Positions 2,297 to 14,108 of a DNA stretch of 64,000 nt are shown here, piece after piece. The position numbers were made by a program, and so were the translations under genes. The notes beneath the pieces are model-generated. The model saw nothing but the letters and a program-made list of their open reading frames with translations. It was not told the DNA's origin and ran no database searches. Position 1 is the stretch's first letter. Each line of letters begins with the position of its first letter. The stretch comes from a virus (taxonomy: Duplodnaviria; Caudoviricetes). The stretch lies in IMG/VR virus record IMGVR_UViG_3300044627_003892; one strand, given 5' to 3'.

Positions 2297-3076
2297 TTTT
2301 TCTTGATTTTGTCAAAATGTCAGTTGAGTGTCAGATGGGGGATAATCCCCTTGACGGGTTTTAGTCATATTAACAACTATAAATATAGTGTATATTATGT
2401 ATATTGTCCATAGGTAAATGTTCCCACTTTTTACCACTGACGTATGTGTAGTGAGGGTTTTTGGTTATATGAAAAGTGAAAAAAGTGGTCCTCCTGATAG
2501 TGTGAGAAGGGTTTTTTTAACTATATACATTTTCCAGATAAAAATAGGATGTAACAATAAAGTGGCGTGGACAGACTTTAGTTGTTTAAATCCTTCAACG
2601 AAAAGTGTATTTCATTGTGTCTTCAAGGGGGTTTTTAAGATTTCCCCTTACCATATAGACACATGATATCGACAATTATAGTGGTGGTAAAAAGTGGGAC
2701 ATATGTTTCATATCACTATAGTCAGGTTAAACCTGACATAACAGATATGTTTCGTATTGTCCCCTTCACATTCCACCATATATTTTATACCCTAACAGGT
2801 ATACTCATATCATCTTATATACCCTTTAGGGTATTTCATTATCCCGATGGGGTACAATACCATTAACAGTAATATGTTATGTCCCTTCATAGTGTGTGTC
2901 TTTCATTATGGGGAATTATTATAGATTAGTGTTGTACGTTAATTATAGATTCATACAATAGGGGAAATTAGGAAGTAAATAAAGGAATGGACCCATTAGT
3001 GTAATGACCCGAAGGGGAATGGAACGACACGATAGTGGAATGGGGGAATGAGTTTGTTTAATTCATAATTTCTTAT

Positions 3077-3084
3077 TATATTTG
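3077..3084 (+). promoter_or_regulatory. Bacteroidetes-type -7 promoter element (TAnnTTTG)
   Basis: TATATTTG 4 nt before the ATG at 3089; same motif at 10573-10580 before the paralog and before many other genes. Confidence 0.65.
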
Positions 3085-3088
3085 TACT

Positions 3089-3883
3089 ATGGTTATTACA
3101 GATAGATTAAAACAAATTATTTTTAAACACCTATATAGAGAGTTAGGTGATTGTGAGATTATTCCTTATAATGGGTCTATATGGTTCATTAATAGGGATA
3201 ATAAACATTGGTACTTTGAACTTGATGAGTCAGGTACTTTATGGTGGAGATACGATTTTTTTAATTCGTTTTTTCAAATATTCTCCATGAGTTCGGATGA
3301 TTTTTGTCCTGTTCTATCTTCTTGGGTGGAAGAGGTCTTAAATCATAAGGTATCCACAACCCAGGATAGCCTGTGTAACGTATGTAAACTGGTGGAAGAG
3401 GTCTTAAATCATAAGGTATCCACAACCTTCATTCCACTTCCAATTACAACGGACAAGGTGGAAGATGTATTAAATCATAAGGTATCCACAACGTGCGATG
3501 TTAAAGTTCGTGTTCCTTGGAAGGTGGAAGATGTATTAAGTCATAATGTTAAGGTGTCTACAACTACCATTCTCAAATACCCCGAGCATTCATTGGTGGA
3601 AAAGGTCTTAAATCATAAGGTATCCACAACCGATTCACTTGATTACGTTGGAAGAATTGAGGTAGAAGAGGTATTAAATCATAGGGTATCTAGAACCTGC
3701 CAAACAAGCGTTTATTGTGATAGGACGGTGGAAGAGGTCTTAAATCATAAGGTATCCACAACGCAGAATTTGAATTATGTCGGCCAAGGACTGGTGGAAG
3801 ATGTATTAAATCATAAGGTATCTACAACGGAATCGTATTTTGGACCCTTCACAAGAGGGGTGGAAGAGGTATTAAATCAATAA
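3089..3883 (+). CDS. array-bearing protein 1: conserved ~80-aa N-terminal domain + VEEVLNHKVSTT repeats with 10-aa variable inserts
   Basis: Open frame across the whole repeat-spacer array; N-terminal domain shared with 10586, 11208 and 11806. Confidence 0.85.
   Translation: MVITDRLKQIIFKHLYRELGDCEIIPYNGSIWFINRDNKHWYFELDESGTLWWRYDFFNSFFQIFSMSSDDFCPVLSSWVEEVLNHKVSTTQDSLCNVCKLVEEVLNHKVSTTFIPLPITTDKVEDVLNHKVSTTCDVKVRVPWKVEDVLSHNVKVSTTTILKYPEHSLVEKVLNHKVSTTDSLDYVGRIEVEEVLNHRVSRTCQTSVYCDRTVEEVLNHKVSTTQNLNYVGQGLVEDVLNHKVSTTESYFGPFTRGVEEVLNQ
3325..3879 (+). CRISPR. CRISPR-like array inside a CDS (8 full + 1 partial repeats, 8 spacers of 30 nt)
   Basis: Repeats start at 3325, 3391, 3457, 3523 (42 bp, +6 insertion), 3595, 3661, 3727, 3793, 3859 (partial); all spacers exactly 30 nt and mutually unrelated; no cas genes seen. 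Confidence 0.7.
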
Positions 3884-4339
3884 TTAGTTATTCTCTAAAG
3901 TACCTGTATAGAAATCTAATACCATATCAAAAATATCATCTAATACATCTTTTGGTAGTTCTTCATAAGACATATAACTTTCATCTAAAATTTGTGAGTA
4001 TTTATATCCACCATAATGAAACACTGTAACATCTTCTTTATTTATCATTTCTATTTGTGAAAGTTCACCGTCTTCATCCTTGAGGACTATTGGGTTTTCA
4101 TTCATATCCATTAGTACAATATATTCATCATCGGTTGTTTCTACTACTTCCTTAATAATCTTAATCTTATTGTTTGTTGTAAGGAACTCATCACCTAACA
4201 CATTTATAAGGTATTCTATACCACCGAACATTTCTCCTGTCTTTAGTAACCCCGCCTGACTTGCGATAGTTAATAACTTCATCTGTTTTACGGTGTATTC
4301 TTCCCTTAATATTCTTTTTATGTTTTGTTGTAGGTTCAT
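3884..4339 (-). CDS. MNLQE-leader family hypothetical protein
   Basis: MNLQQNIKRILREE N-terminus; TATTTATA motif upstream. Confidence 0.75.
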   Translation of the reverse strand: MNLQQNIKRILREEYTVKQMKLLTIASQAGLLKTGEMFGGIEYLINVLGDEFLTTNNKIKIIKEVVETTDDEYIVLMDMNENPIVLKDEDGELSQIEMINKEDVTVFHYGGYKYSQILDESYMSYEELPKDVLDDIFDMVLDFYTGTLENN

Positions 4340-4371
4340 AATATTATAAATATAATTATATTTATTATCAT

Positions 4372-4701
4372 ATGAAATATCTTATAACAGAATCACAATT
4401 AGATAAAGTAATCTTTAGATATTTGGATATTAAGAACTTTATTCAGATTAAAAGAGGAAACACAATATACTTTGTTAATTCGGAAGATGATAAATATGCC
4501 CAAATCAGATATGATAGAAACGATGGTTGGTGTTATATACGCCATGGATTAATTTACGAAATTTCTTCTTTCTTTTCTTTGGACATATATGATTCTAAGG
4601 AAGTTATCGGTAGATGGGTTGAAAATACTCTACAAATGAGGGTTACTTATACCCGTTTGGTCTTTCACGATGTGAACAATTTGTTTAAAATACCTAACTA
4701 A
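4372..4701 (+). CDS. MKYLITESQL-family protein
   Basis: Paralog of 7873, 6537, 10211 and 49322; ends WVENTL...FKIPN. Confidence 0.8.
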   Translation: MKYLITESQLDKVIFRYLDIKNFIQIKRGNTIYFVNSEDDKYAQIRYDRNDGWCYIRHGLIYEISSFFSLDIYDSKEVIGRWVENTLQMRVTYTRLVFHDVNNLFKIPN

Positions 4702-5410
4702 TAGTAATAATCTTCCACTCCCCATTATAATCTTCCACAAGACATGTAGAGTTCTCACAGAAGTCCCCTGAGTTCATATAGTAATTCTCTATCTTCGGAT
4801 GATGAATATGTCCACATACTGCCACATCATACCCCTTCTGTTTTGTTAGACCTTTTGCGTTATCCTCAAAATCAGATACAAAGTTAATTGCCCCTTTAAC
4901 AGATTGCTTTATTGTGTTTGCTAATGAATGATATGGTAAGTTAAACCACTTTCTTATTTTGTTATATAAAGTATTAAACTTAATCACAATATCATATGAC
5001 CATCCACCGATTACCGCTAACCACCTCGCTTCCATTATAACGAAATCCAATACATCCCCGTGAAAACAAAAATACTTTCTATTATCTATTCCTGTATGTA
5101 TATACTTTCTTACAATCCTGATGTTGTTTAATTTAAATGGAATAAAATCTTTTAGGAAGTCATCGTGGTTTCCTCTTATATAAACCACCTTTGTATTCTT
5201 CTCTGACATCTTCATGAACCTTCTGAATATCTTGGTACAATCCTTTGTCCATTTACCATTACCTTTAAGAGCCCAACCATCTATTATATCACCGTTCAGT
5301 ATTAGTTTTTCCGTTGTGTTATTATCCAAGAAACTTATTATCTTATCTGTCTGTGATTGTCTTGCTCCTAAGTGTAAATCACTCATGATTATCGTTTTCC
5401 AATTATTCAT
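4694..5410 (-). CDS. LpxH/PlcP-like metallophosphoesterase (UDP-2,3-diacylglucosamine hydrolase family)
   Basis: SDLHLG, GDIIDGW, GNHD, HGD, GHIH, NSGDFCE motifs. Confidence 0.85.
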   Translation of the reverse strand: MNNWKTIIMSDLHLGARQSQTDKIISFLDNNTTEKLILNGDIIDGWALKGNGKWTKDCTKIFRRFMKMSEKNTKVVYIRGNHDDFLKDFIPFKLNNIRIVRKYIHTGIDNRKYFCFHGDVLDFVIMEARWLAVIGGWSYDIVIKFNTLYNKIRKWFNLPYHSLANTIKQSVKGAINFVSDFEDNAKGLTKQKGYDVAVCGHIHHPKIENYYMNSGDFCENSTCLVEDYNGEWKIITIS

Positions 5411-6141
5411 TCCCAGTATCCTTTATCATCCTCAAAATGATTTTTATTGTTCCTGTTGAAGAATGAACTAACCATAAGTTTTAACATATACCACACTCCT
5501 TTCTGTTTGAACCTTCTTGGACTTGTGAATACCGTTGTATTCATGATATAAAACTTGCTTGGTTTAACTTGTTTGGAGAATAGATAATCCTCGGCAACTC
5601 TTGCGTTTTCATCAAACCCACCGATTGTATCATATACTTCTTTCTTAACCATCATGAACCCACCAAGACAAAATGGTGTGATTGGTTTGAATACCTTTTG
5701 TATTGTGTCAAACAATCTGAATATACTATTATACTCACCTGTCGTTGACCTTACCTTACATGTAATCAAATCTGTATTATGTAATAAGAACTCCCATATA
5801 CAATTGTTTAATATGTTGAAATCCAATAAGAATATGTCAGCGTCCAAAAATAGAACATAAGGTGTTTCCACATTCTCTGCTCCCTTATTTCTTGCAACAG
5901 ACGGAAGTCCTCCTGAAATAATCTGTAGATTAAAATAATCTGTTCTCCTATTTTCCAAAGAATAGGATGTATAATCATCATCCGATGAATCACAAACAAT
6001 AACTCTAACATCTTGTATTCCCTTTTGAAAGTTTAATAAGGACAACGTTTGTTCTATTATCTTGCCCTCGTTCTTACAAGGGATTACTATGGTTAAAAAC
6101 TTTGATAAATCCATAATAATAACTATTAAAAACAACCTCAA
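5407..6141 (-). CDS. glycosyltransferase family 2
   Basis: IVIPCKNE, ARNKG, FLDAD, AEDY motifs; start may be the internal MDLSK. Confidence 0.85.
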   Translation of the reverse strand: MRLFLIVIIMDLSKFLTIVIPCKNEGKIIEQTLSLLNFQKGIQDVRVIVCDSSDDDYTSYSLENRRTDYFNLQIISGGLPSVARNKGAENVETPYVLFLDADIFLLDFNILNNCIWEFLLHNTDLITCKVRSTTGEYNSIFRLFDTIQKVFKPITPFCLGGFMMVKKEVYDTIGGFDENARVAEDYLFSKQVKPSKFYIMNTTVFTSPRRFKQKGVWYMLKLMVSSFFNRNNKNHFEDDKGYWE

Positions 6142-6222
6142 ACCATATTATCATATTCTTATTAAATTATTAACCCAATATGTATTGTTCAATTTTATGT
6201 GTATCTTTGTATTTATTATAAT

Positions 6223-6540
6223 ATGAAGATTGAGCATAAGGTTAAAGCAATTGTAAAACTAATTAATACATTATACTCTCCTGACGAGATTAAAGTTAGA
6301 AAGAGTGAGTTTGATGATGAGATGTTAATTGATGTTTACGTTTCTCATATTGATGACTCATATATAACCAACCCTTACCATTATAATCTTAATAAACTAA
6401 AGGAATTAAATTTAGAACGTGAGATTAGAAGGGCGATAAAGGATTTTTTGAGTATTAAAACAAGCGGACTTAATCCATACACAGGTTTCGCCCCGTATGC
6501 TGTTCACGGCATAACAATAGATGTAAGATTAATATTATGA
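6223..6540 (+). CDS. hypothetical phage protein
   Basis: ATG MKIEH after a tatctttg motif. Confidence 0.6.
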   Translation: MKIEHKVKAIVKLINTLYSPDEIKVRKSEFDDEMLIDVYVSHIDDSYITNPYHYNLNKLKELNLEREIRRAIKDFLSIKTSGLNPYTGFAPYAVHGITIDVRLIL

Positions 6541-6890
6541 AATACCTTATAACAGAATCAAAATTAGAGAAAGTAATCTTTAAGTATCTTGATATTCAGG
6601 ACTTTGTGATATATGACAACAAGAAGAGATTCAGCAATTATATATATTTCTTAAACAGTGAGTCAGATAGGGAATCACAGATTAGTGTTTATACTAACAA
6701 CGCCTTTGGTGAAGTTAGGAATTGGATATTTGTAAATCGTGATTTGACTGATAAATTATCTACCTTATTCCCCATTGGTAAATCGGATTGTTTGGATATA
6801 ATCAAAGAATGGGTTAATAATACTTTGGGTATTAGTGATAGTACGATTTGGGATGGTCCATATGATTACAGATTAGCGGTTACAGATTAA
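6537..6890 (+). CDS. MKYLITESQL-family protein
   Basis: MKYLITESKLEKVIFKYLD ... WVNNTL. Confidence 0.8.
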   Translation: MKYLITESKLEKVIFKYLDIQDFVIYDNKKRFSNYIYFLNSESDRESQISVYTNNAFGEVRNWIFVNRDLTDKLSTLFPIGKSDCLDIIKEWVNNTLGISDSTIWDGPYDYRLAVTD

Positions 6891-6903
6891 TAGTTAACGA
6901 AGA

Positions 6904-7182
6904 ATGAAATACTTAATTACAGAATCACAGTTAGAATCATTTTTACTTAGAAGGTTTACAATGGATGAATTGGAATCACTTAGGGATGATTATAACTACA
7001 TTATGGATGAAGAAGATTTTGAAGATTCCGCCGACAGAGATGATTACGCTTATGAATTAATTGAAAAGTTCATTGATAGACATAGAGGTGAAGAGTTTTT
7101 TCAATATGATGATGATACTGAATTCTATGATAAACGTTCCAAATATATTGGAGCATTACTCAAATTCTTAAACTCTAATTAA
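6904..7182 (+). CDS. MKYLITESQL-leader acidic protein
   Basis: Leader motif; unrelated acidic body. Confidence 0.7.
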   Translation: MKYLITESQLESFLLRRFTMDELESLRDDYNYIMDEEDFEDSADRDDYAYELIEKFIDRHRGEEFFQYDDDTEFYDKRSKYIGALLKFLNSN

Positions 7183-7185
7183 TCT

Positions 7186-7515
7186 TTAGAAACCTTTTCT
7201 TTCATTATACATCCGTGTAATTCTTTTTCTATAATGATTTTCTAACCCTTGGTGTATATCATCATACCAAAATTCATCTTCAGGTAATGTGCTAACAAAT
7301 CTCCAATGTACCCCATCCATCATAAAGGTTATTGTTGTGTAGACTAACTCATCTAAAAAATGTGAACTTAAAACCTTTCTGTCTTTTGTAAGACGATAAG
7401 CACCTTCAAAAGATTCAAGAAACTCATTTTCCATTTCATCATTAGAAAGTCTTCTTTTAATTCTCGCTGATAGTTCTTCCCTCAGTATTCTTTTTATAGA
7501 TTCTTTTAAGTTCAT
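7186..7515 (-). CDS. MNLQE-leader family protein
   Basis: MNLKESIKRILREE. Confidence 0.75.
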   Translation of the reverse strand: MNLKESIKRILREELSARIKRRLSNDEMENEFLESFEGAYRLTKDRKVLSSHFLDELVYTTITFMMDGVHWRFVSTLPEDEFWYDDIHQGLENHYRKRITRMYNERKGF

Positions 7516-7548
7516 ATTATTATAAATATGATTATATTTATATTCTAT

Positions 7549-7869
7549 ATGAAATATCTTATCACCGAATCACAATTAGATAAAGCCAAATCGGTAATAA
7601 ATAATTTAATGATATCTGAGTTAAATAATATATTAGATTATGATAGAACATCAGATAGTGATTTCATTAATATATATAGCCAGGAAAGAGGCCCTGATTT
7701 TTTTATTTTAATGGAGTTTGACCATAGTGATGGTAGATTATTTATTGATGAATCTTTTTTAGATAAGTTTTCATCCATGTATCCACTTGATAAAGAACAA
7801 TCAGGTAAATTCATTTCTGATTGGTTTAGTAAAGTATTTGATGTTGATGTTATGTTTTTTGAATATTAA
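7549..7869 (+). CDS. MKYLITESQL-leader protein
   Basis: Start reassigned to MKYLITESQL at 7549. Confidence 0.75.
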   Translation: MKYLITESQLDKAKSVINNLMISELNNILDYDRTSDSDFINIYSQERGPDFFILMEFDHSDGRLFIDESFLDKFSSMYPLDKEQSGKFISDWFSKVFDVDVMFFEY

Positions 7870-7872
7870 TAT

Positions 7873-8202
7873 ATGAAATACCTTATCACCGAATCACAAT
7901 TAGACAGAGTAATCTTTAGATATTTGGATATTAAGAACTTTATTCAGATTAAAAAGGGTGCAACTATATTTTTAGTTAATTTAGAAGATGATGAATACGC
8001 TGAGATTAGATATGATAAAATTAGTGGATGGTGTTACATTGTTAATAGTTTAATTAATGAAGTGGCCTCTTTCTTTTCTTTGGGTATCTCCGATTCCATG
8101 GAACTTATCCGTAGATGGGTTGAAAATACCCTCAAAGTAATAGTTGTACAAGTCCGTGGGGCTAAACCCGCACCGAATGTATGGATAAGAGTAAATAACT
8201 AA
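7873..8202 (+). CDS. MKYLITESQL-family protein
   Basis: Close paralog of 4372..4701. Confidence 0.8.
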   Translation: MKYLITESQLDRVIFRYLDIKNFIQIKKGATIFLVNLEDDEYAEIRYDKISGWCYIVNSLINEVASFFSLGISDSMELIRRWVENTLKVIVVQVRGAKPAPNVWIRVNN

Positions 8203-8210
8203 TATAATAT

Positions 8211-8621
8211 ATGAAATACATAATCACTGAGAATCAATATAGCAAAACTCTTAAACCCTTATTAGAGAAATTTGGTATGCGTACTCTGTGTAAAATGACT
8301 GATAAGGAACCTGAAGATATTATTGATGAGATTGGTCTTAAAGGAACAAGAGAAGATATTATCTTTCTAACAAAAACTATACTTGAAAATGATATCTCAA
8401 CCGTCTTGATGTATTGTAGTTATAATATCATACCCACTCGTGACTCTATGAACTTGGTCGTCTACATACCTAAGCCAGCTCCTGCAAATGTGGGAAGGTA
8501 TATCTATGAGGAAGGTACAAGAAGTATGTATAGAGATGTTATTTCTAAGGCTTTATATCAATTGGGTGGTGGTCTAATTAGAGTTCACAATATTGAGGTT
8601 TATAATACAGGAAATTGTTAA
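8211..8621 (+). CDS. MKYIITE-leader protein
   Basis: Leader motif, 136-aa ORF. Confidence 0.7.
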   Translation: MKYIITENQYSKTLKPLLEKFGMRTLCKMTDKEPEDIIDEIGLKGTREDIIFLTKTILENDISTVLMYCSYNIIPTRDSMNLVVYIPKPAPANVGRYIYEEGTRSMYRDVISKALYQLGGGLIRVHNIEVYNTGNC

Positions 8622-8637
8622 CTTATATTTATATATA

Positions 8638-8994
8638 ATGAAATATCTTATCACCGAATCAAAATTAAAAACATTCATTAAAAACAAGTTTAATATTGAC
8701 CTGACAGGTCGTGTGGAATTTGAACCTGATTCATATGAATTATTGGTTTATTTTGATAACTATCTTACTCAAGATAGTTTAGCAAGAAGACGGAGAATGG
8801 ATAACTATGGTCCGATATATTTTATAGAATTAGATAATGGAAATAAAATATTTTATCAAATGAATTATAGTTCAGACAGTCCTTTAATTCTTAGTAACGA
8901 AGGTGCTCAATATACTGAATCACAATTTATGAATTTACTTGGTATCTCAGGTCTTGGAATATCAATTGAACAATTTCTTGATTTATACGTATAA
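8638..8994 (+). CDS. MKYLITE-leader protein
   Basis: Start reassigned to MKYLITESKL at 8638, after TATTTATA. Confidence 0.7.
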   Translation: MKYLITESKLKTFIKNKFNIDLTGRVEFEPDSYELLVYFDNYLTQDSLARRRRMDNYGPIYFIELDNGNKIFYQMNYSSDSPLILSNEGAQYTESQFMNLLGISGLGISIEQFLDLYV

Positions 8995-9009
8995 GATACT
9001 TAATCACTA

Positions 9010-9810
9010 TTAGATTAACGTACCAACATATCCTAATGCATCCCAATGACTCTTTCCTTTTGGTGTCTTAGTTGCACCCGCTACCACATCTAATCCTCTT
9101 GCTTTCGATGGACCTGTAATAACATGTGATGATGGAACTCCTTTACCTACCGCAGACTGAACTGAACTTGATGTATTCTTAGATATAGCGTAAGGTTCTA
9201 CTATGAATAACTTACTTTTGTTTTTAATAAGAGAAGCAACTTTAGATGAGTATGAACATCCTGCACTGAATAATACAACTGTCGCGTTAGGATTTTGTAT
9301 GATTGCGGTTTCAATCTTATCAAATTGATTATATCTATATCCTATAACATTTTTCTTTGAACTATTACTTTTAAGTAAGTTTATTTGTTCACCTATGTTT
9401 AAGTCTCCCTTTCTATAATCTAATCCACCCATTAATATAACATCAACAATTGGAGCTTTAGAATCTTTTTTATCATCAGACTCCGTTGATTCGTATATGA
9501 CATCAACACATTCTTTATTATAAAACCTTTCTAAGTCATCCCTCATGTAGTTTTCTACATACGTAACACCATCTTTATATTTTAACCACTCAGACAACGG
9601 ACCATCGGTATCAGAACCATCTGTAATCATGTCCATAATTTCATGTTGTATACCACGCATGAATGCTTCAAAGTTTTCAAAATCACATGGATAATTAGTT
9701 ACATTGTTATCCCATACAAACGATTTAAATCTATTCAATCTTCTTTTGAACTTTGGTGAAAAATCTGTTTCTTCCCTTAATACTTTTTTTATATTCTCTT
9801 GTAGGTTCAT
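9010..9810 (-). CDS. MNLQE-leader protein with possible alpha/beta-hydrolase-like C-terminal domain
   Basis: Leader motif; C-terminal VILMGGLDY...VLFSAGC...H. Confidence 0.6.
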   Translation of the reverse strand: MNLQENIKKVLREETDFSPKFKRRLNRFKSFVWDNNVTNYPCDFENFEAFMRGIQHEIMDMITDGSDTDGPLSEWLKYKDGVTYVENYMRDDLERFYNKECVDVIYESTESDDKKDSKAPIVDVILMGGLDYRKGDLNIGEQINLLKSNSSKKNVIGYRYNQFDKIETAIIQNPNATVVLFSAGCSYSSKVASLIKNKSKLFIVEPYAISKNTSSSVQSAVGKGVPSSHVITGPSKARGLDVVAGATKTPKGKSHWDALGYVGTLI

Positions 9811-9842
9811 AATATTATAAATATAATTATATTTATTATTAC

Positions 9843-10214
9843 ATGAAGTATATTATTACCGAGTCACAACATAAATTAATATCCGAACTTGAAAGAACTT
9901 GGAGAGATTCTGAATATACGGAACAATACAATAGACTAAAACCTAAAATGATTCGTTATTTTGAAAATTTGGTTGATTCACATTCTGAAAATGATGTAAG
10001 ACTTAACTTATTTGATAGTGACCAAAACGCCGTAATGGTTTATAATAAACCAAGTGGTGATTTATACTATAATAGGAACTTTGACGATATATATGGTACA
10101 GCCTTTCCTCATCCCATTTGGTTAGTTCACGGCAAATTCATTATGTCAGATGTATTTAATGAGTTCTTTCCTGACTACGAAGTTAAATCAGTTAGAAGTA
10201 TAACATTATCATGA
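9843..10214 (+). CDS. MKYIITESQ-leader protein
   Basis: Leader motif. Confidence 0.7.
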   Translation: MKYIITESQHKLISELERTWRDSEYTEQYNRLKPKMIRYFENLVDSHSENDVRLNLFDSDQNAVMVYNKPSGDLYYNRNFDDIYGTAFPHPIWLVHGKFIMSDVFNEFFPDYEVKSVRSITLS

Positions 10215-10549
10215 AATATTTAATCACAGAATCACAATTAGATAAAGCAATACTCAAGTTTCTTGATAGTCAGGATTTTAATATAACTAAAATTGGTGCC
10301 AGTACATATATTTCATACCCTGAAGATGATTTTGCTCAGATTAAATATGGTGGTAATCATTCCAATAATGAATTGTGTTTTATCTATAAAGGTTTAATTG
10401 AAGCAATTTCTTCCTTCTTTTCTCTTAACAGTTATCAATCCACCAGAATTGTTGGGCAATGGGTTAAGAAAAAACTGAATTTGGAGGGTCAAATGTCCAA
10501 CAAGATAATGAGCTCCCAATGGTCGTTAAAATTACCAACTGAAGATTAA
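10211..10549 (+). CDS. MKYLITESQL-family protein
   Basis: Paralog of 4372 (AQIKY...ISSFFSL...IVGQWV). Confidence 0.8.
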   Translation: MKYLITESQLDKAILKFLDSQDFNITKIGASTYISYPEDDFAQIKYGGNHSNNELCFIYKGLIEAISSFFSLNSYQSTRIVGQWVKKKLNLEGQMSNKIMSSQWSLKLPTED

Positions 10550-10585
10550 TTTGTATTTTCAAAGTTTTTTTGTATCTTTGTGCTT

Positions 10586-11224
10586 ATGGTTACAGATAAG
10601 CTAAAACAACTCATATTCAAACACCTATACAAAGAGTTAGGTAATGTGGAGATAATCCCGTATAAAGACTCTGTATGGTTCATTGATAGGGAAAATTGTT
10701 ATTGGTATTTTCAGTTGTCTAAAGATGGATGTTTATTTTGGAGATACTCATTCTTCCCATCGTTTTTCAGTATTTTCTCTTTGGAGCAAAGTGAGTTTGA
10801 ACCAATAATATCTTCTTGGGTGGAAGAGGTATTAAATCATAAGGTATCCACGACAGGTAATAAGCTCGGTTACTTCTCGCGAAAGGTGGAAGAGGTATTA
10901 AATCATAAGGTATCCACAACAAAAATGTTTGTAATTGACGAATTTCCTCTGGTGGAAGAGGTATTAAATCATAAGGTATCCACAACTGAAGAGAAAACTA
11001 CTGTAACAGCAAAGTGGGTGGAAGAGGTCTTAAATCATAAGGTATCCGAAACTTTTGAAGTAGACGCCGCCCAAAAAAGAAAGGTAAAAAAAGTATTAGA
11101 TAGTAGGGTATCAACAACTAAAAATAATTCCTTATTTTCCGAAAGGTCAGTGGAAGAAGTATTAAATAGTGCTTGGGTGAAAAAGGCATTAAACAATAAA
11201 AAAGAAAATGAAAGTAACGGATAG
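10586..11224 (+). CDS. array-bearing protein 2
   Basis: ATG 5 nt after TATCTTTG; same N-terminal domain plus VEEVLNHKVSTT repeats. Confidence 0.85.
   Translation: MVTDKLKQLIFKHLYKELGNVEIIPYKDSVWFIDRENCYWYFQLSKDGCLFWRYSFFPSFFSIFSLEQSEFEPIISSWVEEVLNHKVSTTGNKLGYFSRKVEEVLNHKVSTTKMFVIDEFPLVEEVLNHKVSTTEEKTTVTAKWVEEVLNHKVSETFEVDAAQKRKVKKVLDSRVSTTKNNSLFSERSVEEVLNSAWVKKALNNKKENESNG
10819..11170 (+). CRISPR. CRISPR-like in-frame array (5 repeats + partial, 5 spacers of 30 nt)
   Basis: Repeats at 10819, 10885, 10951, 11017, 11083 (degenerate), 11149 (partial); 66-nt period. Confidence 0.65.
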
Positions 11225-11819
11225 ATTAAGACAACTCATATTCAAACAACTATACAAAGAATTAGGTAATGTGGAAATTATCCCTACCCAATACAGTTAT
11301 TGGTTTATTAATAGAGAAGAAAAATACTGGTATTTCCAACTAACTGAAAGTGGATGTTTATATTGGAGATATGATTATTTCAAATCTTTCTTTTCTTTTT
11401 TCTCTTTGGAGTCCAAAGATTTTGAACCAATTATTTCATCTTGGGTGGAAGAGGTATTGAATAGTAAAGTATCCACAACAATTGTGCAGATGCATCATAA
11501 GAAGGATTCGGTGGAAGAGGTATTGAATAGTAAGGTATCCACAACTCAGCAATTCAGTTTCACTTCGAATGATATGATGGAAGAGGTATTGAATAGTAAG
11601 GTATCCACAACTGCAGGAAAGGCAGGAACTGTAACCATTGCGGTGGAACAGGTATTGAATCGTAAGGTATCCAAAACAGTCCGTGACGTAGGTGAAGGAA
11701 ACTTTTTGGTGGAAGATATATTGAATCGTAAGGTATCCAAAACGGAAGAATTCATCTCAAGAAGAGCGGAATCGGTATATGAGGCATTAAACAACAAAAA
11801 AGAAAATGAAAGTAACTGA
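11208..11819 (+). CDS. array-bearing protein 3 (VEEVLNSKVSTT variant)
   Basis: Paralog overlapping the previous stop; repeat variant LNSK/LNRK. Confidence 0.85.
   Translation: MKVTDRLRQLIFKQLYKELGNVEIIPTQYSYWFINREEKYWYFQLTESGCLYWRYDYFKSFFSFFSLESKDFEPIISSWVEEVLNSKVSTTIVQMHHKKDSVEEVLNSKVSTTQQFSFTSNDMMEEVLNSKVSTTAGKAGTVTIAVEQVLNRKVSKTVRDVGEGNFLVEDILNRKVSKTEEFISRRAESVYEALNNKKENESN
11444..11795 (+). CRISPR. CRISPR-like in-frame array (5 repeats + partial, 5 spacers of 30 nt)
   Basis: Repeats at 11444, 11510, 11576, 11642, 11708, 11774 (partial); consensus GGTGGAAGAGGTATTGAATAGTAAGGTATCCACAAC. Confidence 0.65.
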
Positions 11820-12540
11820 TAGATTAAAACAGGTTGTATTCAAACAACTATACAAAGAATTAGGTAATGTGGAGATAATCCCATATAAAGATTCTATATG
11901 GTTAATTGACCGAGAAAAGGAGCATTGGTATTTTGAATTTGAAAAGAGTGGTCGTTTGTGGTGGAGATATTATTTCTTTAATAGTTTTTTTACTATTTTC
12001 TCATTGGAACCCAAAGATTTTGAACCAATACTCTCTTCTTGGGTGGAAGAGGTATTAAATCATAAGGTGCCCACAACTGAATTGTGTGCGGAGAAAAAGT
12101 ATGATGAGGTGGAAGAGGTATTAAATCATAAGGTATCTACAACTGTTTACATGGGCATGAAGGCAAGTGTGAAGATGGAAGAGGTATTAAATCATAAGGT
12201 ATCCACAACGCAAAACGATATCGGTAAAGAAGGTTTCTTGGTGGAAGATGTATTAAATCATAAGGTATCTACAACACAAACGACGAATGCGGAACAAGTG
12301 GTTTTGGTGGAAAAGGCATTAAATCATAAGGTGTCTACAATATCATTCAATACACCGCCGTTTCCGAATATGGTGGAGAAGGTATTAAATCATAAGGTGT
12401 CTAAAACCTATTGTAGACCCACTATTGTTCCCAGTGAGGTGAAAGAAGTCCTAAATCATAAGGTAACTACAACACACACATCACGTACATGTAATTCACC
12501 AGTGGTGGAAGAGGTATTAAATGAAAACCCCACTGAGTAG
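11806..12540 (+). CDS. array-bearing protein 4
   Basis: Paralog with 7 variable inserts. Confidence 0.85.
   Translation: MKVTDRLKQVVFKQLYKELGNVEIIPYKDSIWLIDREKEHWYFEFEKSGRLWWRYYFFNSFFTIFSLEPKDFEPILSSWVEEVLNHKVPTTELCAEKKYDEVEEVLNHKVSTTVYMGMKASVKMEEVLNHKVSTTQNDIGKEGFLVEDVLNHKVSTTQTTNAEQVVLVEKALNHKVSTISFNTPPFPNMVEKVLNHKVSKTYCRPTIVPSEVKEVLNHKVTTTHTSRTCNSPVVEEVLNENPTE
12042..12522 (+). CRISPR. CRISPR-like in-frame array (7 repeats + partial, 7 spacers of 30 nt)
   Basis: Repeats at 12042, 12108, 12174, 12240, 12306, 12372, 12438, 12504 (partial). Confidence 0.65.
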
Positions 12541-12593
12541 CGAATTCAATGGGGTTAATGTAGCCTAAACTACAACGGTCCTAAGTCCGTATC

Positions 12594-13214
12594 TTAAGTA
12601 TTTTTATCTCTAAGTCTTTCATCTGTTTCTTCTTGGACTTCAGGTATGAATCTATCCAAGATTATTTCATACACTTCTGGTAAGTAAAACGTATTATACC
12701 AATCAAATAAATTATCAACACTATTAAAAAAATAATTACCATTATGTGTATTATGTGTAAGTTCCACAAAATAATCACCATCACCACTTGTATCGTATAT
12801 TCCTACATTAGGTTTCTTTGAGTCATCTTCTAATCCATACCAATCAAGTTCAACGGGTGTATAATCAGCAGTTGCAAAAAAAGGTGTTGCCATTACCCAT
12901 ATTTTTTCTAATACATTAGGTGGATAGTGTCCCGATTTAAACTGCCTTGTCCAATAAAACACATCATCACTACTTATTTCAATTTCAAATCCTTTATATT
13001 TTGCAGGTAAATTACCATTTTCAATATTTTCAACCAATAGTTCTTTAGCAACAAATTCATCAATTTTTAAATCAGACATTTTGTATAAATAGGTAAGACT
13101 CACACCCATCATTTTTGCCGTCTTATAAACACCATGTTTACCAACAGTATCCATAATGAATTTACTCTTTTTATCTTCCCTTAATACTCTTCTTATGTGT
13201 TCCTGTAGATTCAT
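12594..13214 (-). CDS. MNLQE-leader family protein
   Basis: MNLQEHIRRVLRED. Confidence 0.75.
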   Translation of the reverse strand: MNLQEHIRRVLREDKKSKFIMDTVGKHGVYKTAKMMGVSLTYLYKMSDLKIDEFVAKELLVENIENGNLPAKYKGFEIEISSDDVFYWTRQFKSGHYPPNVLEKIWVMATPFFATADYTPVELDWYGLEDDSKKPNVGIYDTSGDGDYFVELTHNTHNGNYFFNSVDNLFDWYNTFYLPEVYEIILDRFIPEVQEETDERLRDKNT

Positions 13215-13215
13215 A

Positions 13216-13644
13216 TTAATTACTTTTACCTGTTCCTTTATTGATTAATTTTATACAGTTAGATGATATATTCTCAAATGTCACAATATGATGTTCATAA
13301 TCTCCACCTTCGAAATGTGCATCTCTATACCAAGTAACCCCAGCACATTCTGTATCTATTAACCATGTGTCATCATCATAACCATCACTAAACATATCTT
13401 CTTTATCCAATGAATCTGTGGCAAAAATTGCTGGTTGACATTCCGTATACCATTCACCATATAAATCCATTGCGTGATTCTCATAACATTCCCCTACCGA
13501 TGTCAACAACCCATTAAGTCGTATATTCTTTCTCCATACCGAATTTGATTTATGGACCACAAACTTATTAGGTGTATATTCATCTCCTGATGGAGAATAT
13601 AGTTCTTCCCTTAATATTCGTCTTATTGTTTCTTGTAGGTTCAT
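13216..13644 (-). CDS. MNLQE-leader protein, possible ADP-ribosyltransferase-like fold
   Basis: Leader motif; VVHKS...NIRLNGL...IFAT...IVTFENI pattern reminiscent of Tpt1/ART-like domains (weak). Confidence 0.5.
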   Translation of the reverse strand: MNLQETIRRILREELYSPSGDEYTPNKFVVHKSNSVWRKNIRLNGLLTSVGECYENHAMDLYGEWYTECQPAIFATDSLDKEDMFSDGYDDDTWLIDTECAGVTWYRDAHFEGGDYEHHIVTFENISSNCIKLINKGTGKSN

Positions 13645-14108
13645 TTCTTTGTATTTTTAACACAGTTAGGGTATCTCTTACCAAACATAGTTTTCATTCC
13701 TTTTTGAGTATATCCTTTCCAACATCTTTCAGTTAATTCACCTTCTTTCATCTCCTGAGTTTTCTTTTTAGATTGTTCTTTTTTGGATTCAATATATTCA
13801 AAGGCAGTTCTTAATCTTTTCTTAACCTCAGGGTCTTTCGCTCTTTCCAAAGCCACTCGTAATCTTTGATGAATTAGATTTATAATCTGAGACTGACGAG
13901 CGTGTGATTTAGATTTGAAACTTTCTTTGTTTAAAGTATCTACAATATCTTGTTTTGTTCTGAACTTAACCGATACAGTATCCTTTGGGTTTTCATCAGT
14001 ATATAATCTTCTGTCGGAATCTTTTGGTTTCTTACCTGTTCCAACTTTGGGGTCTGACTCAACCAAGTATTTCCTCAATAATCTTCTTATTTGTTCTTGT
14101 AGGTTCAT
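13641..14108 (-). CDS. MNLQE-leader basic protein
   Basis: MNLQEQIRRLLRK. Confidence 0.7.
   Translation of the reverse strand: MNLQEQIRRLLRKYLVESDPKVGTGKKPKDSDRRLYTDENPKDTVSVKFRTKQDIVDTLNKESFKSKSHARQSQIINLIHQRLRVALERAKDPEVKKRLRTAFEYIESKKEQSKKKTQEMKEGELTERCWKGYTQKGMKTMFGKRYPNCVKNTKK

Follow-up and report, generated by a model that had tools for sequence, protein, structure and literature searches.

The virus record IMGVR_UViG_3300044627_003892 (IMG/VR; Duplodnaviria: Caudoviricetes) contains a gene at positions 3089-3883 that is built largely from 36-nt repeats separated by 30-nt spacers, in the manner of a CRISPR array. Here we report an analysis of this gene and of three paralogues in a stretch of 64,000 nt of the record (the window). 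The repeat at 3325-3360 had been flagged in an earlier reading of the nucleotide sequence alone (the sequence-only reading). This unit is probably the repeat of a genuine CRISPR-type array, one that sits in a phage gene, is filled by the Cas1-Cas2 integrase of the host and is held in frame by selection. The features of the first gene are as follows:

3089-3883, + strand: gene A, an open reading frame (ORF) of 264 amino acids (aa), with an N-terminal domain (N-domain) of about 80 aa followed by array A
3317-3328, + strand: junction of the coding 'leader' with the first repeat, ...CTTG followed by GGTG; its counterpart in the type II-C array of genome G092 is ...TTTG followed by GGTG
3325-3360, + strand: the flagged 36-nt repeat, identified by copy search and ORF context as copy 1 of array A
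3325-3879, + strand: array A, with 8 repeats, a truncated terminal repeat and 8 spacers of 30 nt
3361-3390, + strand: spacer A1, an exact 30/30 reverse complement within bacterial rplM (ribosomal protein L13)
3427-3456, + strand: spacer A2, an exact 30/30 match within a 335-aa ORF of host-genus genome G297, sense strand, out of frame
3523-3564, + strand: 42-nt frame-keeping variant repeat of array A

The flagged copy (GGTGGAAGAGGTCTTAAATCATAAGGTATCCACAAC) has one mismatch to the repeat consensus (GGTGGAAGAGGTATTAAATCATAAGGTATCCACAAC). With up to 3 mismatches allowed, 15 copies were found in the window and none in 100 shuffled sequences. Looser matching raised the number of full copies to 24; all of them are on the + strand, and they form four arrays that start at 3325, 10819, 11444 and 12042. 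The proposal of a 36-nt repeat with CRISPR-like ends was thereby confirmed and extended to four arrays with 30-nt spacers. The three further array genes are:

10580-11224, + strand: gene B, paralogue, with array B from 10819, 5 spacers and degenerate distal repeats
11208-11819, + strand: gene C, paralogue, with array C from 11444; spacers C2, C3 and C5 map to the host genus
11806-12540, + strand: gene D, paralogue, with array D from 12042; spacers D1, D2, D3 and D7 map to the host genus

Searching IMG/VR with the phage repeat added 13 related viral loci with 27 further arrays, which brings the dataset to 31 arrays in 14 sequences. Among 166 repeat-to-repeat intervals in the window and the 13 viral loci, 158 measured 66 nt, seven measured 138 nt (an effect of the 42-nt in-frame variant repeat) and one measured 132 nt; all regular spacers in the 14 sequences (158/158) are 30 nt long. 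The arrays thus combine near-identical repeats with unique spacers of fixed length, as CRISPR arrays generally do, and their distal (3') repeats are degenerate. They depart from the general pattern in that all 31 (4 in the window, 27 from IMG/VR) lie wholly within ORFs, each sharing one open frame with its 'leader' (31/31) rather than following a non-coding, AT-rich leader. An Rfam scan of 2500-13000 gave no match to CRISPR repeat families at E values up to 10, and a comparison of the arrays with a cultured-phage database gave only chance-level matches at E values up to 5. The predicted RNA fold of the repeat consists of a 5-bp GUGGA/UCCAC stem (-5.4 kcal/mol, z = -1.3), without an inner stem and without a poly-U loop, which is the short stem lacking an internal hairpin that the sequence-only reading had described.

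Genes A-D encode a conserved start domain of about 80 aa, followed by VEEVLNHKVSTT and 10 variable residues per 66-nt unit, so that each unit comprises 12 constant and 10 hypervariable residues. The limits of the repeat do not coincide with those of codons: base 1 (G) is the wobble position of the preceding codon, and bases 35-36 (AC) open a Thr codon. The variable codon completed by base 1 encodes 12 amino acids, yet the base is G in 132 of 134 distinct contexts, and base 34, the four-fold wobble position of the first Thr codon, is A in 132/134. The following Thr codon has its wobble position at the first base of the spacer, where all four bases occur. The boundary between constant and variable sequence therefore cuts codons, which fits 30-bp inserts between copies of a 36-bp DNA unit. 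The N-domain stands where the leader of an array would. Its structural model is of high confidence (predicted local distance difference test, pLDDT, 91.5), and the first repeat begins within its last helix. A fold search with this model against PDB and AlphaFold database (AFDB) clusters returned no significant or named match, and Pfam and PHROGs searches with the four array proteins and their neighbours returned nothing above threshold. The single-sequence AlphaFold model of a whole array protein was uninformative (pLDDT 36). The C-terminal tails of the array proteins are conserved.

The origin of the spacers was traced by sequence matching. In a search of public runs, a 187-nt freshwater metatranscriptome contig matched 3361-3390 exactly, with flanks unlike the repeat. 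A metagenome scan with spacer A1 and four flanking bases on each side yielded a single contig (L147) with rpsB, rpsI, rplM, queA, truB and recN, in which the 30 bp of A1 sit in rplM on the opposite strand. The QueA of this contig is 97-99% identical in 12 species genomes (order-level sample of Flavobacteriales), and BLAST of the arrays against 14 genomes of this Flavobacteriales group gave matches at spacer intervals only. With up to 5 mismatches, 25 spacers map to one Flavobacteriales genus (window spacers mapped: 13/25), four of them perfectly (30/30) and nine with at most one mismatch; the chance expectation is 0.33 matches at >=25/30 and 1e-6 at >=29/30. All 25 mapped protospacers lie within host ORFs, and their edges coincide with the repeat boundaries. 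Thirteen are antisense and 12 sense, seven of the latter in the host's own frame, and essential genes such as rplM and secA are among those matched. The spacers are thus exact 30-bp pieces of the host chromosome whose ends meet the repeat edges, with no fixed orientation or frame. The genus that supplies them is taken to be the host of the phage, in agreement with the earlier proposal of a Bacteroidetes host. No arrays carrying the phage repeat were found in the host genomes. At one of the 25 protospacers, the diverged one of spacer A7 (3763-3792), 15 of the 21 nt downstream (L160:1525-1545, host genome G170) agree with bases 1-21 of the repeat, and BLAST joined A7 and the repeat into one 49-nt match of 82% identity. 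The sequence directly upstream of the gene A ATG (3060-3088, TATATTTG) fits the Bacteroidota -7 promoter motif TAnnTTTG, which agrees with the Flavobacteriales host found via the spacers.

The 158 spacers comprise 79 sequences in 66 families. Pairwise distances are either at most 6 differences or indistinguishable from those of shuffled pairs, with no continuum between the two, and between orthologous arrays of different phages the order of common spacers is preserved, the differences consisting of whole cassettes. The base composition of the spacers (42.2% GC; GC at third codon positions, GC3, 0.39) is close to that of the host loci (41.8% GC) and not to that of the phage genes (33% GC; GC3 0.28), and their amino-acid composition correlates better with random translation (r 0.80) than with the phage proteome (r 0.62). 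The arrays are polar: spacer sharing among phages increases toward the 3' end, or trailer (Spearman 0.32, reached by 0 of 2000 within-array permutations), and the farther a spacer lies from the leader, the more it mismatches the host (rho 0.77, p 0.002). A Fisher test of private spacers at the first versus the last position was not significant, and rank tests were used instead. The newest spacers therefore lie at the leader side and the degenerate repeats at the trailer, as in CRISPR arrays generally and, in this orientation, in bacterial VI-B arrays. No self-protospacers were found in the window, the 13 viral loci or a 240-kb relative, where the best off-array match was 15 nt, and two leader-side spacers had no match in IMG/VR.

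The frame of the arrays is under selection. Since only 64.5% of random host 30-mers preserve the open frame, 66 open families are improbable by chance (p ~3e-13), and the lack of 29- and 31-nt spacers adds a factor of ~2e-9, considering that 88% of the spacers in bacterial arrays are 30 nt long. Spacer variants within families differ by 11 synonymous and 11 non-synonymous changes, with 22% synonymous expected, which corresponds to a dN/dS of ~0.28 (p 0.003) in a small sample without correction for transition bias. Selection retains only insertions that leave the frame open, and the arrays are CRISPR-type structures made of host DNA and maintained in frame. A contig from an RNA library hints that the array region is transcribed; its array variant resembles the one in the related phage L004. 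This 151-nt contig of the lake metatranscriptome X16 joins 3495-3522 to 3793-3915, with 270 nt (four units) missing; its cassette order is that of L004, which indicates that array variants coexist. Between 96 and 97% of the sampled words of 3000-4400 were present in 14 metagenome runs of lake water from 2020-2024 (one per study code), so that this version of the array is stable and widespread over years.

Related genes are numerous. At least 314 close relatives of the N-domain were found in metagenomes, with lengths that step by 22 aa, and the best 120 of these contain 213 distinct cassettes, so that about 280 cassettes are known in all; a search of 1.8 billion representative proteins returned 291 N-domain relatives. 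Arrays turn over among closely related phages. Distant relatives also carry in-frame 36/30 arrays, with repeats of the form GTTG...AACAACAAC (L177), GGTA...ACAACAAC (L178), GGTGGA...GGGTAACAACAAC (L179) and G(G/T)TGGA...AACAAC (L180). The 3' ACAAC, including the A at the four-fold wobble position, is kept in all four, and the L177 repeat carries GTTG...CAAC, unlike the copies in the window.

Type VI-B systems are characterized by 36-nt repeats with a poly-U open loop and 5'-GUUG/CAAC-3' ends, 30-nt protospacers, and a CRISPR RNA (crRNA) with the spacer 5' and the repeat 3' (bioRxiv 10.1101/092577); the repeats of Flavobacterium columnare and F. branchiophilum have been tabulated (PMC5395568). 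A scan of 185,579 species genomes for VI-B-type patterns yielded at least 120 Bacteroidota loci. Cas13b (NF038190; the Bergeyella zoohelcum copy is identical to PDB 6AAY) adjoins those arrays that were checked, and 516 of 587 spacers in bacterial VI-B arrays are 30 nt long. The phage repeat is identical to the sampled VI-B repeats at 16-24 of 36 positions (24/36 being the best among the matches listed). On a position profile built from 67 distinct VI-B repeats, its ends score 24.9 bits (~1e-5 per random site, with a sampling pattern chosen on the same ends), whereas its 22 interior positions score -11.7 bits, below the minimum (-10.6) and far below the median (+20) of the family members (p 0.07 versus random sites). 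On this profile the likeness is confined to the ends, and the interior scores like random sequence.

In common with the VI-B arrays of Bacteroidota, the phage arrays have a 36-nt repeat, spacers of 30 nt, a 3' end of the form ...GGTAT(C/T)(C/T)ACAAC, a 5' G(G/T)TGGAA near that of the B. zoohelcum repeat, an upstream leader in the same orientation and degenerate distal repeats. In some window copies the last 14 nt are identical to those of the repeat of Flavobacterium sp. J27, AAGGTATCTACAAC being common to both. Unlike VI-B repeats, the phage repeat is without an inner stem and poly-U loop and lies in a presumably translated frame, and cas13b was found neither beside the array nor in the host genus. 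Its 3' CAAC is present, but its 5' end is GGTG instead of GUUG; 126 of 134 copies have G as base 2, which breaks one pair of the terminal stem. Ends and geometry are thus VI-B-like, and the interior is not. The suggestion that the repeat mimics the ends of VI-B repeats therefore stood in part: the ends match, but they are common to types II-C and VI-B, and GGTG fits II-C better. GGTG also opens the repeats of a few arrays of Sphingobacteriaceae. Bacterial arrays of VI-B pattern that begin with GGTG and have a weak inner stem were seen in Sphingobacterium and Parapedobacter (L061, L071, L096, L059, L018, L098, L054, L047, L129 and L088); L061 has no cas13b within 8 kb of the array. A Bacteroidaceae metagenome-assembled genome from roe deer abomasum (L062) contains two 36-nt units that lie 30 nt apart; their start, GGTGGAAG, is like that of the phage repeat, and their end is GGGTAGTTACAAC.

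The observation that no cas genes lie nearby held for a wider set of sequences: tblastn with Cas13b, Cas9, Cas1 and Cas2 found none in the window, the 240-kb relative or the viral loci, and hidden Markov model (HMM) searches for Cas13b and Cas1 found none in five related phage records of up to 240 kb and the nearest record. The arrays thus belong with the cas-less phage arrays whose spacers match the host. An anti-repeat, as expected of a II-C crRNA array, was not found in the window and the 240-kb relative (no reverse match with <=11 mismatches). None of the 27 species genomes available for the host genus yielded Cas13b (0/27), and positive controls were found (3/3). One genome of the genus (G092) carries cas9-cas1-cas2 (TIGR01865, cas1_NMENI, cas2), and no adaptation module other than II-C was seen in the genus. 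The II-C locus of the host genus lies at L165:9332-14122. The G092 array has 30-nt spacers and a 47-nt repeat that starts GGTGTTTCG and ends CAATTCACAAC (leader left), so that its termini are GGTG...CACAAC, as in the phage repeat; its leader ends ...CATTTG at GGTG, and the phage 'leader' ends ...CTTG at GGTG. Gapped alignment of the two repeats scored 11.4, compared with -0.7 +/- 2.4 for 2000 shuffles. No spacer of the G092 array matches the phage.

Likeness to the II-C system of Flavobacteriales represented by G092 therefore includes the GGTG start, the CACAAC end, the 30-nt spacers and the leader junction (...TTG followed by GGTG); the differences are the length of the repeat (36 versus 47 nt), its interior, the lack of an anti-repeat in the phage and protospacers beside which no protospacer-adjacent motif (PAM) was seen. 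The phage GGTG start fits this II-C repeat of the host genus better than it fits the GTTG of VI-B. In the sequences compared, the phage repeat shares only length, G(G/T)TG...CACAAC ends and 30-nt spacers with the II-C and VI-B arrays of Bacteroidota, and not the stem-loop. In F. columnare, the II-C Cas1-Cas2 supplies VI-B arrays in trans with spacers from host and phage DNA, so that this integrase accepts a foreign 36-nt array (Hoikkala et al. 2021, PMC8092290). The same study reports a GTTGT motif at the leader-distal side of II-C and VI-B repeats alike (PMC8092290); this motif is the reverse complement of the 3' end of the phage repeat.

Host spacers with exact edges, the newest at the leader, are what integration of the Cas1-Cas2 type produces. 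In the mechanism that we propose, Cas1-Cas2 supplied by the host would use the phage repeat as an integration target and duplicate it at each insertion, and fragments of the degraded host chromosome would serve as substrate. Each insertion would add a 66-nt unit, and only insertions that leave the frame open would survive selection. The writer would be the integrase of the infected cell, and the repeat seems to have kept the features that an integrase reads (ends, length) and lost those that an effector reads (inner structure). The sequence-only reading had likewise proposed that the phage keeps what a host Cas1-Cas2 recognizes, recodes the middle of the repeat and so hijacks host adaptation. 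Ends, geometry, exact host spacers at the repeat edges and polar growth, newest at the leader, support this proposal, in which the writing enzyme is a predicted element.

Several points weigh against a host integrase as writer. Cas1 was found in only 1/27 species genomes of the host genus, a lower bound because many assemblies are fragmented, and the host II-C repeat is 47 nt long, that of the phage 36 nt. No flanking motif or PAM was found on either side of the 25 protospacers, a small and partly diverged sample, and this includes the F. columnare motif NNNNNTAAA; Cas9-assisted type II adaptation usually leaves a PAM. The coding 'leader' resembles the leaders of bacterial VI-B arrays only at the junction, with no further motif in common in a comparison with ~50 such arrays. 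There are no phage-derived spacers, which the supply of substrate alone does not obviously explain. Integration by Cas1-Cas2 is a prediction, as is translation of the array proteins, which is expected from frame conservation.

Some of these points would suit a different writer. The same host-derived arrays could have been inserted by a phage-encoded enzyme or another non-Cas1 mechanism, the CRISPR-like ends then being a relic; the rarity of Cas1 in the host genus (1/27), the lack of a visible PAM and the turnover of arrays among closely related phages are all in keeping with this. We nevertheless consider it unlikely, given that a Cas1-like gene was not found in the window, the 240-kb relative or five further records and that the terminal motifs are conserved in distant arrays, four-fold wobble base included. 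To our knowledge, no other enzyme duplicates a 36-bp repeat and inserts exactly 30 bp. A slightly less likely explanation retains the host enzyme and sees the phage leader-repeat junctions as decoy sites that soak up Cas1-Cas2 events, so that the array of the cell is seldom immunised and the cassettes are by-products. At least four arrays per genome with integrase-type ends and no effector-binding interior, filled with random host fragments in both orientations, would be expected of such decoys, but these should also take up phage-derived spacers, of which none were seen. Moreover, the purifying selection on spacer variants at the protein level (dN/dS ~0.28), the conserved C-terminal tails and the wide distribution of the family with its 22-aa length steps suggest that the product matters.

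It is improbable that the arrays provide working guide RNAs, in the way suggested for some huge phages, their crRNAs loading a host effector (Cas9 or Cas13b) directed at rplM, secA and other host genes. Spacers do match host genes, essential ones included, none is self-targeting, and host-targeting phage arrays have a precedent (PMC7162821). However, with 13 antisense and 12 sense spacers half would be unable to guide an RNA-targeting enzyme, neither a PAM nor, in the window or the 240-kb relative, an anti-repeat or element like a trans-activating crRNA was seen, and the repeat interior is unlike that of VI-B and of the host II-C system. Effectors are rare or absent in the genus, and the strict open frame is left unaccounted for. 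Sequestration of Cas13b by repeats in the mRNA, the decoy or RNA anti-CRISPR role put forward by the sequence-only reading, is very improbable. The 36/30 geometry and the 3' end, identical to that of some VI-B repeats (that of Flavobacterium sp. J27 among them), would agree with it, yet the interior scores below every sampled VI-B member and has no poly-U loop or inner stem, the spacers show no antisense bias, Cas13b was found in none of the 27 host-genus species although positive controls were detected, and the best VI-B identity (24/36) is far under the 90% used for RNA anti-CRISPR (Racr) candidates (PMC10651486). An ordinary tandem-repeat protein with parts that diverged in place and a chance likeness to CRISPR could be imagined, because the repeat starts in the last helix of the N-domain and small paralogues carry W-V-E-x-x-L at this point. 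This explanation has a negligible probability: it is refuted by exact 30-bp host matches that stop at the repeat edges, and neither the lack of a continuum in spacer divergence nor the conserved wobble positions at unit boundaries agree with it.

If, as we favour, the host Cas1-Cas2 writes the arrays, the phage may use CRISPR adaptation as a generator of protein diversity, with random 30-bp host fragments written in frame. This further step is tentative. The same holds for its consequences, in which each insertion would add one constant helix and a new 10-residue loop, selection would act on the resulting library, and the system would be the cassette-writing counterpart of the diversity-generating retroelements (DGRs).

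The window also contains two families of neighbouring genes. Small paralogues that start with MKY(L/I)ITE(S/N)Q are located at 4372-4701, 6537-6890, 7528-7869, 7873-8202, 8211-8621, 8593-8994, 9843-10214 and 10211-10549. Most of them end near W-V-(E/N/K)-x-x-L, which aligns with the start of the array repeat, so that the repeat may have grown from the C-terminal helix of this domain family. A second paralogous family on the - strand (3884-4339, 7186-7515, 9010-9810, 12594-13214, 13216-13644 and 13641-14108) consists of otherwise unrelated proteins that have the N-terminus MNLQE.I+R.LRE in common and are without Pfam or PHROG match. In the N-domain of gene C, 11353-11381 matches, over 28-29 nt and at 93%, a hypothetical gene found in the Cellulophaga phages phi4:1 and phi17:2, and the N-domain family may extend to cultured phages of Flavobacteriia.

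Arrays of this class have so far been invisible because CRISPR arrays are treated as non-coding and searches for repeat mimics mask ORFs. Here the grammar of an array (repeat duplication, captured 30-bp spacers, polar growth) is found in genes that look expressed, and in hundreds of proteins from lake metagenomes. If a host integrase is the writer, an adaptation machinery has been turned to phage use, and phage arrays would record the hosts that a lineage has infected; in the present case they would name the host genus of an uncultured giant phage. In that case, what II-C/VI-B integration requires in sequence could also be read off a naturally occurring 'minimal' substrate that preserves nothing of the repeat but its ends.

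Compact arrays without cas genes, whose spacers match the host, have been described in huge phages (Al-Shayeb et al. 2020, PMC7162821). The arrays described here resemble them in the large phage genome, the compact format of 5-8 repeats, the lack of adaptation and interference genes, and spacers that match the host chromosome, translation genes included (PMC7162821). The arrays of huge phages are described as non-coding, with host-like repeats (PMC7162821), whereas those reported here are fused in frame to a protein domain, with a frame under selection, a diverged repeat interior and random spacer orientation. Like Racr and solitary repeat units, the repeat is a phage-borne mimic of a CRISPR repeat without cas genes. 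Racr elements, however, do not code for protein, have an identity of 90% or more to host repeats and have not been reported for type VI (PMC10651486); the best identity of the present unit to the sampled repeats is 24/36, and it lies in an ORF. The Racr search pipeline masks predicted ORFs (PMC10651486), so that in-frame arrays could not have been found that way. A literature search, of incomplete coverage, found no description of an in-frame, translated CRISPR array. With phage DGRs the arrays have in common a dedicated means of making a defined part of a protein hypervariable. DGRs rewrite adenines by reverse transcription of a template repeat; the arrays, by contrast, gain complete cassettes of 10 residues, each a captured piece of host DNA.

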